64,000 bases of DNA from Escherichia coli (GCF_044324785.1 NZ_CP172127.1), one strand, 5' to 3'. Counted from the first letter of the stretch, positions 366 through 6,675 are shown. Program-made: numbers and translations. Notes: generated by a model from the sequence alone, not told the origin.

Positions 366-405
366 AAGCCAACCTTAAGAACTTAAGGTTGGCTTAATTT
401 TGCTT
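366..405 (+). terminator. Hairpin plus T-run downstream of adiC
   Basis: Inverted repeat aagccaacctt...aaggttggctt followed by aattttgcttt. Confidence 0.6.
382..398 (+). promoter_or_regulatory. Putative BasR/PmrA box (CTTAAG-N5-CTTAAT direct repeat) upstream of eptA
   Basis: cttaaggttggcttaat about 45 bp upstream of the eptA ATG; matches the YTTAAK-N5-YTTAAK PmrA half-site arrangement. Confidence 0.55.
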
Positions 406-2753: not shown

Positions 2754-2762
2754 TTGAATTTG

Positions 2763-3854
2763 ATGCGTTTTCTGCGCAGACCAATATCGCTGCGCCAACG
2801 GCTGATATTGACCATCGGGGCCATTTTGTTGGTGTTTGAGCTGATCAGCGTCTTCTGGCTATGGCATGAAAGTACCGAGCAGATTCAGCTGTTTGAGCAG
2901 GCGCTACGCGACAATCGCAACAACGATCGCCACATCATGCGTGAGATCCGCGAGGCGGTCGCCAGCCTGATTGTCCCCGGCGTCTTTATGGTCAGCCTGA
3001 CGCTATTTATCTGCTATCAGGCGGTACGCCGCATCACCCGGCCGCTGGCGGAGCTGCAAAAAGAGCTGGAAGCGCGCACCGCCGACAATTTAACGCCTAT
3101 TGCCATTCACAGTGCCACCCTCGAAATCGAAGCGGTGGTTTCGGCGTTAAACGATCTGGTCAGTCGCCTGACCAGCACGCTGGATAACGAAAGGTTGTTT
3201 ACCGCTGACGTCGCGCACGAACTGCGAACGCCACTGGCGGGGGTGCGTTTGCATCTGGAACTGCTGGCGAAAACGCATCACATTGATGTAGCACCGTTAG
3301 TGGCACGGCTTGATCAGATGATGGAGAGTGTCTCCCAGCTACTGCAACTGGCGCGTGCCGGACAGTCATTTTCTTCCGGGAATTATCAACATGTAAAACT
3401 GCTGGAAGATGTCATTCTCCCCTCGTATGACGAACTCAGTACCATGCTCGACCAGCGCCAGCAAACCCTGCTATTGCCAGAGAGCGCCGCCGACATCACC
3501 GTTCAGGGTGATGCAACCCTGCTGCGGATGTTATTGCGAAACCTGGTAGAAAATGCCCATCGTTACAGCCCGCAAGGCAGCAACATTATGATTAAGCTGC
3601 AAGAAGATGGCGGAGCGGTCATGGCCGTTGAAGATGAAGGACCGGGTATTGATGAGAGTAAATGCGGGGAGTTGAGTAAAGCGTTTGTACGTATGGACAG
3701 CCGTTATGGCGGGATTGGTCTGGGGTTAAGTATTGTCAGCCGCATTACACAGTTGCATCACGGGCAGTTTTTCCTGCAAAACCGGCAAGAAACTTCCGGC
3801 ACGCGGGCCTGGGTACGGCTGAAGAAAGATCAGAACGTGGCAAACCAGATATAA
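2763..3854 (+). CDS. basS: Sensor histidine kinase BasS (PmrB)
   Basis: 363 aa from ATG 2763; TM segments, H-box ADVAHELRTPL, ATPase G-boxes. Confidence 0.9.
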   Translation: MRFLRRPISLRQRLILTIGAILLVFELISVFWLWHESTEQIQLFEQALRDNRNNDRHIMREIREAVASLIVPGVFMVSLTLFICYQAVRRITRPLAELQKELEARTADNLTPIAIHSATLEIEAVVSALNDLVSRLTSTLDNERLFTADVAHELRTPLAGVRLHLELLAKTHHIDVAPLVARLDQMMESVSQLLQLARAGQSFSSGNYQHVKLLEDVILPSYDELSTMLDQRQQTLLLPESAADITVQGDATLLRMLLRNLVENAHRYSPQGSNIMIKLQEDGGAVMAVEDEGPGIDESKCGELSKAFVRMDSRYGGIGLGLSIVSRITQLHHGQFFLQNRQETSGTRAWVRLKKDQNVANQI

Positions 3855-3919
3855 AGAAAGCTGCTGACCACCAGCACGCTGAACACGGTAGTTAAACTTT
3901 CATAAACACGGTTTTTCAT
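3830..3919 (-). CDS. pmrR: Small membrane protein PmrR (29 aa), antisense-overlapping the basS 3' end
   Basis: Reverse strand reads atgaaaaaccgtgtttatgaa... = MKNRVYESLTTVFSVLVVSSFLYIWFATF*; below the 60-aa ORF-track cutoff. Confidence 0.7.
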   Translation of the reverse strand: MKNRVYESLTTVFSVLVVSSFLYIWFATF

Positions 3920-3988
3920 TGCACTCTCCTCCGTTAACCTGGAGGAGAGTATGCGCGTCAGAGATTAAGTGAACCTTAAGAGTTCAAT

Positions 3989-4018
3989 TGGCCTGATAAG
4001 ACAGCGTCACATCAGGCC
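3989..4018. repeat. REP-like palindrome / bidirectional terminator between basS and proP
   Basis: ggcctgataagacagcgtcacatcaggcc inverted repeat. Confidence 0.6.
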
Positions 4019-4030
4019 ATCCGTTTCAGC

Positions 4031-5533
4031 TTATTCATCAATTCGCGGATGTTGCTGCACCAGGCGGGTACGTTTCGCCTGCAAATCGGCAATCTCGTGG
4101 TCAATATCATCGATTTTCTGCTCGATATTATCGTAATGCTCGACGAGAATTTCCTTCGCTTCCTGTATATCTGACGCCGCCGGTGTCGCACCTTTCAACG
4201 GACGATTCGCCGTCTCTTTCATGGTTACGCCGGTGATTAAACCAACCACCGCCACTACCATCAGGTAATAGGCAGGCATCATCAGATTCTGCGAGCTTTC
4301 GACCAGCCAGGCCGCCAGTGTTGGCGTCAGACCGGCAACCAGCACCGAAATATTAAATGCCGCCGCCAGCGCGCTGTAACGGATATGCGTCGGGAACATC
4401 GCTGGCAAGGTAGAAGCCATAACGCCCGTAAAGCAGTTAAGGATCACCGCCAGCATCAGTAACCCGGCAAAAATCAGGCCGATGACGTTACTGTTAATCA
4501 GAATAAACGCCGGGATCGCCAACACAAACAGTGCAACACTACCAAGTAGCACAAACGGACGACGGCCAAAACGGTCACTCAGCAAGCCCATCACCGGCTG
4601 GACAAACAGCATACCGATCATAATGGCGATAATAATCAGCACCCCGTGGTCTTCGGAGTAATGCAGGTTATGCGACAAATAACTCGGCATATAGGTCAGC
4701 AACATGTAGTAAGTCACGTTGGTGGCAATTACCAGACCAATACATGTCAACAGGCTGCGCCAGTGTTTGGTGGCAATCTCTTTAAACGAGACTTTCGGGC
4801 CATCCTGCAAACCTTCGCGGTCGCCCTGCTCCAGTTTATCAACATGCTGCTGGAACGCCGGGGTCTCTTCCAGCGCATGGCGCAGGTAAAGCCCGATAAT
4901 CCCTAACGGCAGAGCAATAAAGAACGGAATACGCCAGCCCCAGTCGAGGAAGTTCGCTTCGCCGACAATGGTCGAAATTAACACCACCACGCCCGCACCC
5001 AGCACAAACCCGGCAATAGAACCGAAGTCCAGCCAGCTGCCCATAAAGCCACGTTTACGGTCAGGGGAGTATTCCGCAACAAATATCGACGCCCCGGTAT
5101 ATTCACCGCCGACCGAGAAACCTTGTGCCATCTTACAGATCAACAGCAGAATCGGTGCCCAAATACCAATCGTGTCGTAGGACGGTATTAAGCCAATACA
5201 GAACGTACTGATCGACATAATCACAATAGTGATAGCGAGGATCTTCTGGCGACCATATTTATCGCCCAACATACCAAAGAAGAGCCCGCCAAGCGGTCGA
5301 ATCAGAAAGGGAACGGAGAAAGTGGCAAGTGCAGCAACCATCTGCACGCTGGGGTCAGCCCCCGGGAAAAAAACTTTACCTAATGCGTAAGCAACAAAAC
5401 CATAAACACCAAAATCGAACCATTCCATTGCATTACCCAGTGATGCTGCGGTAATGGCTTTACGCAGTTTACCGTCATCAATAATGGTGACATCACGAAG
5501 GGTAATCGGTTTTACTTTTTTCCTTTTCAGCAT
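4031..5533 (-). CDS. proP: Proline/glycine betaine:proton symporter ProP (MFS osmosensor)
   Basis: 500 aa from ATG at 5533 (MLKRKKVKPITLRDV...), 12-TM MFS with C-terminal coiled coil (IDDIDHEIADLQAKRTRLVQQHPRIDE). Confidence 0.92.
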   Translation of the reverse strand: MLKRKKVKPITLRDVTIIDDGKLRKAITAASLGNAMEWFDFGVYGFVAYALGKVFFPGADPSVQMVAALATFSVPFLIRPLGGLFFGMLGDKYGRQKILAITIVIMSISTFCIGLIPSYDTIGIWAPILLLICKMAQGFSVGGEYTGASIFVAEYSPDRKRGFMGSWLDFGSIAGFVLGAGVVVLISTIVGEANFLDWGWRIPFFIALPLGIIGLYLRHALEETPAFQQHVDKLEQGDREGLQDGPKVSFKEIATKHWRSLLTCIGLVIATNVTYYMLLTYMPSYLSHNLHYSEDHGVLIIIAIMIGMLFVQPVMGLLSDRFGRRPFVLLGSVALFVLAIPAFILINSNVIGLIFAGLLMLAVILNCFTGVMASTLPAMFPTHIRYSALAAAFNISVLVAGLTPTLAAWLVESSQNLMMPAYYLMVVAVVGLITGVTMKETANRPLKGATPAASDIQEAKEILVEHYDNIEQKIDDIDHEIADLQAKRTRLVQQHPRIDE

Positions 5534-5796
5534 AGCTTTCCTCGCAGAGTTGGCCCATTTCCGCAAACGCCAGAAAAATCAGCGCGACGGCCGCAAAAGG
5601 GGAGCGGGAATTGCAGGATGCAATCTCTGTAACAAGCGTAGCGGGTTTGCTTACACCCTCCGGTTAAGGAATGTACAATCAAACCAGTTGACGCCTGAAT
5701 TGGGCAGTTAATGACCTTTTTACCCTACCAGTGTTTAAATTTGTGATCAACTTCACATATGGATTTCGTTTAGGACTCATTGATGTAACTGATTAT

Positions 5797-6675
5797 TTAC
5801 ACCAAATTTACAGAGAAGATTTCCTCGACCATTGCCCCCGCCAGACGCTGCGCTGAACAGAGTCGTGGCATCCCCAGCGCGACAGTTTGCCAGCGTTGGG
5901 TCACTGACCAGCAAACGGGTTGTTTATCTGCCGTGGTCCACTTTCCCAGCCAACTTAAAAAATCAGCATGATCCCCGCCCGTCGGAACGGTCGAAGAGGC
6001 AAACCACTGATGGTAATAGTGACGCGTGGTCGGGGCCGCATTGATACTCTCTGCCAAATGTTGTGTCGCTTTCTCGCGCAAATCACCCAGCAACAACGCC
6101 ACCGCTTGCGGGCTTCCCAGACGGCAGGCATCGCCAAATGCCCCCCAGCGCAACTCCTCCAGAACGATAAAACAGCGCCCAGGCAACGACCAGGCGTTAT
6201 ACGCCCCAGCACGCCAGCGGGTAAAAATTTGCTCGCTCTGATCACCTGCCTGCACCAGTAGGCCTCGTTGCGTTAACGCCTTTTCCTTCCAGCGACAACG
6301 GGCTGAAAACCACTCATACAAGGCGGCAATTTGCTGGGGGAGCTCCGGGAAAGCAGAGTGCTGGCGGTGATCCATTTTTTGCAGCAGCGCCAGATGCTGC
6401 GCGATCTGCGTCAGTGCCAGATGACCGGGATCCAGCATCGACGCCAGTTTTTCCACCAATGTCAGACGCAGGCTAAGCGGCGCATTTAACATGCCGCCGT
6501 TCGTCCATGTCTGAAGCTGCACGCGCGCAAGAAGTTCCTGCATCAGTCGTTCACGAAACTGCTGCTGATGGGCTTGTGGAAGGCGGGCATCATCGCCCTG
6601 CGCCAAATCCACTAAAAAGCGGGGATAAACCGACTCCAGCACGCGACCGGGGCCGTCAAGTAACGTCTTGGTCAA
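5797..6675 (-). CDS. yjcZ: Uncharacterised protein YjcZ, cotranscribed with crfC
   Basis: 292-aa ORF, 4-bp start/stop overlap with upstream crfC. Confidence 0.8.
   Translation of the reverse strand: MTKTLLDGPGRVLESVYPRFLVDLAQGDDARLPQAHQQQFRERLMQELLARVQLQTWTNGGMLNAPLSLRLTLVEKLASMLDPGHLALTQIAQHLALLQKMDHRQHSAFPELPQQIAALYEWFSARCRWKEKALTQRGLLVQAGDQSEQIFTRWRAGAYNAWSLPGRCFIVLEELRWGAFGDACRLGSPQAVALLLGDLREKATQHLAESINAAPTTRHYYHQWFASSTVPTGGDHADFLSWLGKWTTADKQPVCWSVTQRWQTVALGMPRLCSAQRLAGAMVEEIFSVNLV

Follow-up and report, generated by a model that had tools for sequence, protein, structure and literature searches.

The pmrR small-protein gene convergent with basS in Escherichia coli and a conserved hairpin over its ribosome-binding site

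The pmrR locus

The DNA analyzed in the current study, a 64 kb stretch of Escherichia coli (the window), carries the basS/pmrB sensor kinase gene and, directly downstream and convergent with it, a small ORF on the reverse strand (table 1). The ORF starts with an ATG at 3919, stops with a TGA at 3832..3830, and translates to the 29 residues MKNRVYESLTTVFSVLVVSSFLYIWFATF, exactly as written in an earlier note on this DNA, whose approximate location (3820..3925) brackets the true ORF. The earlier note had also recognized the peptide as PmrR, and the database searches agreed. The curated equivalog model NF033224 of NCBIfam ('LpxT activity modulator PmrR', cutoff 30) matched the peptide over its full length (residues 1-29 on profile positions 1-29 of 29) with 72.7 bits (E = 1.5e-20), RefSeq entry WP_000797656.1 (pmrR, E. 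coli) is identical to it, and the counterpart in K-12 MG1655 is b4703 (YP_004831120.1, 'small regulatory membrane protein PmrR'). A Pfam search returned no family for the peptide.

Table 1. Coordinates of features in the window, and of the construct ends of PMC8004244 mapped onto it
Feature	Position	Strand	Remarks
PmrA box CTTAAGGTTGGCTTAAT	382..398	+	second perfect box; promoter of the eptA-basR-basS operon, convergent with pmrR
basS/pmrB, sensor kinase gene	2754..3854	+	ORF scan, annotation
Rfam RF02052 'Enterobacterial sRNA STnc630'	3823..3988	-	full-length match, 178.5 bits
pmrR coding sequence	3830..3919	-	29 codons and TGA; ORF scan, NF033224, RefSeq/K-12 annotation
Weak terminator-like hairpin, TGCTGGTGGTCAGCA then GCTTTCTTTA	3862..3876	-	lies within the pmrR ORF; also paired in the consensus structure of Rfam
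10-bp hairpin, ACTCTCCTCC - AGGTTAAC - GGAGGAGAGT (pmrR sense)	3923..3950	-	sequesters the Shine-Dalgarno sequence
Shine-Dalgarno sequence GGAGGAG	3926..3932	-	within the hairpin's 3' arm; ends 6 nt before the ATG
Predicted -10 hexamer CATACT	3948..3953	-	inferred from conserved spacing
PmrA (BasR) box CTTAAGGTTCACTTAAT of pmrR	3964..3980	-	perfect match; conserved in 55 other species
REP-like palindrome GGCCTGAT...ATCAGGCC	3989..4019		14-nt arms, 86% complementary
proP	4031..5533	-	upstream gene, co-oriented with pmrR
Construct about +86	ends 3941		just inside the predicted start site; no -10, half of the hairpin
Construct about +103	ends 3958		just upstream of the predicted -10; hairpin complete, box missing; colistin MIC 4 µg/mL
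Construct +126	ends 3980		first base of the PmrA box; colistin MIC 16 µg/mL

Among 5426 complete E. coli genomes, 5412 contained a matching 601-bp region, and pmrR was annotated beneath the match in 10/10 records among the matches listed. In the best genome match pmrR is flanked by adiC, eptA, basR and pmrB on one side and by proP, rdcB and crfC on the other. K-12 b4703 shares with the window the position between proP and basS, the 25-nt overlap, the PmrA box and the 5' region, and the two peptides differ only at the C-terminus (...ATY in K-12, ...ATF in the window) by a single SNP at 3834. The ORF is the already known, annotated and characterized E. coli gene pmrR; descriptions exist of the gene itself, of how it is regulated and what it does, and of the overlap with pmrB, and its occurrence in this E. 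coli window adds nothing new to the published biology.

The peptide begins with MKNRVYES, which includes K2 and R4, and residues 9-27 (LTTVFSVLVVSSFLYIWFA), read directly from the sequence, are hydrophobic and free of charge, which is consistent with one transmembrane helix. Its size (~29-30 aa), short basic N-terminus and single hydrophobic segment form a layout common to 55 homologues. The ratio pN/pS was about 0.47-0.54 overall and lowest over the last 9-10 codons, and the five other frames contained stops in 27-41 of the 44 loci having a 30-aa ORF. A chance ORF was ruled out by the NF033224 score, the conserved module of box and ORF, and the frame kept open.

Distribution of pmrR in Enterobacterales

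Eighty pmrB loci from Enterobacterales, one per species, were scanned for a module consisting of a PmrA box (at most one mismatch) on the opposite strand just past pmrB, followed by a start codon and a small ORF. The module seen in the window was found beside pmrB in 55 of these 80 species, with pmrR in the same convergent position. In the 55 loci and the window the start codon lies 40-46 nt past the box and is ATG in all but one locus (L062, GTG). The ORF codes for 28-33 aa, hydrophobic in the core and ending in W-x-x-[ST]-[FY]; examples are MQKINFREYLAVATALVIIVAFFHQWVLTF in Klebsiella and MKQRIYESVTTMFSVLIVSSFLYIWVSTY in Citrobacter amalonaticus. The window and the 55 other species form the 56-locus alignment used below. 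The fetched loci included no Salmonella, for which the comparison was made through the NCBIfam model and the Rfam consensus.

Searching the fetched flanks of the other 25 loci with a profile HMM made from the PmrR peptides gave nothing convincing. Seventeen of these are all the loci whose PmrB is no more than 58% identical to that of E. coli (Pectobacterium, Rahnella, Serratia, Ewingella, Rouxiella and others). The other eight belong to Enterobacteriaceae (L010, L013, L015, L033, L036, L047, L048 and L082, among them Pseudescherichia, Superficieibacter and a Pluralibacter MAG); their PmrB is 61-66% identical to that of E. coli and their flanks hold neither a PmrA box nor a PmrR-like ORF, which could reflect loss or relocation of pmrR.

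Among the pmrR-bearing loci, proP is the upstream neighbor in Escherichia and C. amalonaticus only, and in Klebsiella pneumoniae (L022) this place is taken by uvrB (3820..5844 on the minus strand of that locus), which is likewise co-oriented with pmrR. The differing upstream neighbors suggest that pmrR travels, or has been relocated, as a unit with the pmrCAB module.

Promoter region of pmrR

The PmrA box motif (YTTAAK-N5-YTTAAK) occurs twice in the 64 kb window, compared to 0.14 occurrences expected by chance. One of these perfect matches lies on the minus strand within 3920..3990, where the earlier note had proposed to look for it, and the other precedes eptA. The pmrR box ends 44 nt before the pmrR ATG, and the eptA box 46 nt before the eptA ATG at 445. 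Both the box and its spacing are conserved, and the box places pmrR in the PmrA regulon.

The hexamer CATACT begins 10 nt past the pmrR box. A NANACT motif was found at this fixed spacing in nearly all of the 56 aligned loci, and the eptA promoter has a -10-like GAGCAT at the same 10-nt spacing from its own box. Pho boxes likewise sit 10 bp upstream of the -10. By likeness to promoters with PhoB-type boxes, CATACT is the predicted -10 of pmrR, and transcription is predicted to start at ~3940-3941, at the end of the 5' arm of the hairpin described below, giving a 5' UTR of ~21 nt. A literature search for a mapped pmrR start site found none. A generic sigma-70 scan of 3400..4300 found no promoter, which is expected for an activator-dependent promoter and thus uninformative. 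Further downstream, the GAGG core of the Shine-Dalgarno sequence is invariant or nearly so in the 56 loci.

The palindrome between the proP stop codon and the pmrR PmrA box, which resembles the REP consensus, has no U-tract after it, so that read-through from proP into pmrR is plausible and proP is a possible source of transcripts entering pmrR from upstream. SEnd-seq data cited in PMC10687069 place the ends of proP-derived transcripts inside the pmrR coding sequence, indicating that such read-through does occur. A weak terminator-like hairpin lies within that coding sequence, ~20 nt before the stop codon and adjoining the start of the basS overlap; termination there would leave a pmrR mRNA without a stop codon.

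Overlap of pmrR with basS

The coding sequences of pmrR and basS share 3830..3854, both stop codons included, so the overlap of about 25 nt with the basS stop region given in the earlier note is exactly 25 nt. This overlap has already been stated (PMC8004244) and drawn (Figure 7 of PMC8129183). PmrB contains HAMP, HisKA and HATPase_c domains, the last of which ends at residue 359 of 366, and the shared segment codes for residues past HATPase_c.

Among the loci compared with the window, the overlap of the two coding sequences differed from genus to genus, with extremes of -8 and +57 nt. Conservation of PmrB extends as far as '...RAWV.F' at the end of HATPase_c, and the tail beyond varies in both length and sequence. 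Within the overlap, the W-x-x-[ST]-[FY] of the PmrR C-terminus is conserved and the PmrB tail is not, suggesting that pmrR is the constrained partner and that the overlap arises by drift of the pmrB stop codon. Judged from these alignments, the overlap of the coding sequences looks incidental. The 'compact convergent arrangement' of the earlier note is real insofar as the genes converge and overlap, but with an overlap of variable extent and a variable PmrB tail it is not a conserved design. An overlap with basS that is functionally required was rejected, as its length is not conserved. The transcripts of pmrR and pmrB may nevertheless overlap in every genus.

The pmrB ORF in the window, with a PGAP-style TTG start at 2754, is 366 aa long, whereas K-12 basS is annotated with 363 aa; residue numbers such as Y358N refer to the shorter K-12 annotation.

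The Rfam family STnc630

The same region is filed by Rfam as a small RNA (RF02052, type 'Gene; sRNA'). The match in the window, far above the gathering score of 55, spans the PmrA box, the hairpin and 5' UTR, and the whole pmrR ORF. The consensus structure of the family includes the hairpin over the Shine-Dalgarno sequence as well as the hairpin inside the coding sequence. STnc630 could accordingly be read as a non-coding sRNA in which the ORF is incidental, and the full-length match would fit this. However, the Rfam consensus itself, which derives from Salmonella, contains a PmrA box, a Shine-Dalgarno sequence, an ATG and an intact 29-codon frame coding for MKNRIYESLTTVFSVLIVSSFLYVWVTTY, of which 23/29 residues are identical to PmrR of the window (six substitutions), and the ORF, unlike the other frames, is kept open across the 56 loci. 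Translation and peptide-dependent phenotypes have been published, and the start-codon mutant described below effectively refutes a purely non-coding role (PMC11429745), which we regard as extremely improbable. From its conserved ORF with Shine-Dalgarno sequence and ATG, the STnc630 family appears to be the pmrR gene itself, a small-protein mRNA filed as an sRNA, and is better regarded as the pmrR mRNA. No mention of 'STnc630' was found in the literature searched.

Hairpin over the ribosome-binding site

The arms of the 10-bp hairpin upstream of pmrR (3923-3932 and 3941-3950) are 100% complementary. The predicted fold has -19.9 kcal/mol (z = -5.6) and buries the Shine-Dalgarno sequence of pmrR. 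In the 56-locus alignment 81.6% of the cells pair, compared to no more than 50% when the partner columns were slid. Cells with a change on both sides numbered 58, against 19.4 in shuffles, and the observed value was reached in 0/500 shuffles, although such counts overstate the number of independent events as the aligned sequences are related. Several Watson-Crick types occur at at least three of the pairs; at one pair the counts were CG 18, AU 17, GC 6 and GU 6. On this comparative evidence, the hairpin is conserved with compensatory changes across Enterobacteriaceae.

The 5' arm of the hairpin reaches from within the predicted -10 to the predicted start site. Folding is weak for an RNA that starts at 3940 (-6.8 kcal/mol, z = +0.4), whereas an RNA starting upstream of the hairpin is locked (-22.7 kcal/mol). 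These foldings raise the possibility that the hairpin acts as a promoter-selective gate on pmrR translation. Transcripts initiated under PmrA control would lack the 5' arm and be translatable, while RNA reading through from proP in Escherichia or from uvrB in Klebsiella, the co-oriented genes upstream, would include the closed hairpin (about -20 kcal/mol) and remain silent. If this were true, a peptide that is harmful when over-made would stay strictly under PmrA control. The proposal is a tentative one, which we consider rather unlikely to be correct as it stands.

Alternatively, the hairpin could be a structure at the 3' end of the eptA-basRS mRNA, which converges on pmrR and in whose sense the hairpin is equally stable (-20.3 kcal/mol). 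No U-tract lies beside it on either strand. Wobble cells were counted to tell which strand's RNA the hairpin serves, and gave a mixed picture: in the pmrR sense they were G-U 35 versus A-C 8 at the eight core pairs, and G-U 16 versus A-C 48 at the four outer pairs, with both sets of counts biased by the constraints on the Shine-Dalgarno sequence and the -10. Of the present results, only the Shine-Dalgarno hairpin overlapping the promoter, with its putative mechanism, and the side observations on database entries and published data might be new.

Function of PmrR and its relation to LpxT

In the proposed pathway, phosphorylated PmrA (BasR) would bind the box upstream of pmrR and activate a promoter without a -35 element. 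The short pmrR mRNA would be translated from its strong Shine-Dalgarno sequence, and the product, 29 residues long with one transmembrane helix, would insert in the inner membrane and inhibit LpxT there. LpxT is the enzyme that places a second phosphate on lipid A at position 1. Once the enzyme is inhibited, this position would be free for the addition of phosphoethanolamine by EptA, whose gene belongs to the convergent eptA-basRS operon, itself activated by PmrA. The expected outcome is a less negative cell surface, with polymyxin resistance raised and deoxycholate resistance lowered. PmrR would thereby couple the PmrA/PmrB regulon to the choice between phosphorylation and phosphoethanolamine decoration of lipid A, a choice that entails a trade-off between resistance to polymyxin and to bile salts.

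PmrR of Salmonella enterica is also a PmrA-activated inner-membrane peptide of 29-30 aa that inhibits LpxT, and there it would in addition feed back negatively on the Fe3+ signal of PmrB. Direct binding of PmrR to LpxT and the Fe3+ feedback loop were reportedly demonstrated in Salmonella by Kato et al. 2012 (Mol Cell). Herrera 2010 makes no mention of PmrR.

While binding and feedback come from Salmonella, the evidence for LpxT inhibition in E. coli is genetic, in the form of epistasis. In a PmrA-constitutive strain, deletion of the PmrA box of pmrR gave polymyxin B-sensitive and deoxycholate-resistant cells, and deletion of lpxT on top of the box deletion restored polymyxin resistance (PMC8129183).

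Translation and membrane association of the peptide are likewise taken from published work; the frame kept open and the pN/pS of about 0.5 lend translation indirect support. The earlier note had named ribosome profiling as a check on translation, and evidence of this kind is available: Ribo-RET reads at the PmrR start site increased 5-fold in low Mg2+ (PMC11429745). In the same study PmrR-6xHis was recovered in the membrane fraction, and deletion of pmrR caused a growth defect in low Mg2+ that was complemented by the wild-type gene, whereas an ATG-to-TAA mutant failed to complement. Overexpression of PmrR was harmful. A YFP reporter with the stretch directly upstream of pmrR was not significantly induced in low Mg2+ (PMC11429745).

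Some of the E. coli phenotypes do not depend on lpxT. The growth defects caused by deletion or overexpression of pmrR persist in an lpxT deletion background (PMC11429745), suggesting that PmrR has additional targets. This would also be expected if the main partner of PmrR in E. coli were not LpxT but another membrane protein, e.g. EptA, ArnT or PmrB itself. However, the promoter mutant of pmrR shows polymyxin and deoxycholate phenotypes that depend fully on lpxT (PMC8129183), and any further partners would act in addition to LpxT inhibition, not in its place; a different main partner is improbable. Considered as a whole, the observations are best explained by pmrR being a real gene for a PmrA-activated membrane peptide that inhibits LpxT, a reading we hold to be almost certainly correct; no observation speaks against the identity as PmrR.

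PmrR resembles MgrB and MgtS, two further small inner-membrane regulators from the PhoQP/PmrAB stress network, which are likewise shorter than 50 aa, have one transmembrane helix, are induced by envelope or Mg2+ stress and modulate a larger membrane protein (PMC11429745). The targets are PhoQ in the case of MgrB, and MgtA and PitA in the case of MgtS, and neither peptide shows any sequence relationship to PmrR.

Re-reading of published pmrB constructs

Both pmrB mRNA and colistin resistance have been reported to rise in the presence of the region that contains pmrR, and the authors pointed out that this rise does not fit the feedback model from Salmonella (PMC8004244). Shortening the downstream sequence from +126 to +86 bp lowered the pmrB mRNA about 315-fold, and pmrR was raised by the authors as a possibility only. 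Mapping of the construct ends onto the window by the 5' ends of the primers showed that they coincide with parts of the pmrR promoter (table 1). The colistin MIC of the about +86 construct is 0.5 µg/mL, the value given for susceptible constructs (PMC8004244). We infer that the colistin series, with absent, partial and full resistance at +86, +103 and +126, tracks the stepwise restoration of the pmrR promoter, which offers a simple alternative explanation for the resistance; it does not by itself explain the differences in pmrB mRNA.

The mRNA difference would be accounted for if the transcript acted mainly as RNA, either as an antisense excludon or as an element of the basS 3' UTR that sets the level of basS mRNA, with the peptide secondary. 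From RNA-seq coverage, ExcludonFinder counts pmrR-basS as one of the convergent excludons in E. coli (PMC12288877), and the sRNA entry of the region in Rfam points the same way. On the other hand, the failure of the ATG-to-TAA mutant to complement indicates that the peptide is needed (PMC11429745), the lpxT deletion is epistatic to the box deletion (PMC8129183), and it is the peptide sequence that is conserved and not the overlap of the coding sequences. Lost pmrR expression would, moreover, explain the loss of resistance equally well. A mainly RNA-based role is improbable.

A shared polymorphism of PmrR and PmrB

The SNP that distinguishes PmrR of the window from that of K-12 lies within the overlap. 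Position 3834 is A on the plus strand and T on the minus strand, so that a single base accounts for both Y29F in PmrR and Y358N in PmrB (K-12 numbering). PmrB Y358N is often reported in colistin studies. It is known to mark phylogroups B1, C and E and shows no relation to the colistin MIC (PMC11451601); PmrR is not mentioned in that phylogeny study. Wherever the 'colistin' polymorphism Y358N of PmrB is reported, PmrR carries the Y29F change as well, which is a confound. The 61-mer around the SNP (3804..3864) of the window occurs in identical form in 1861 of 5408 E. coli records.
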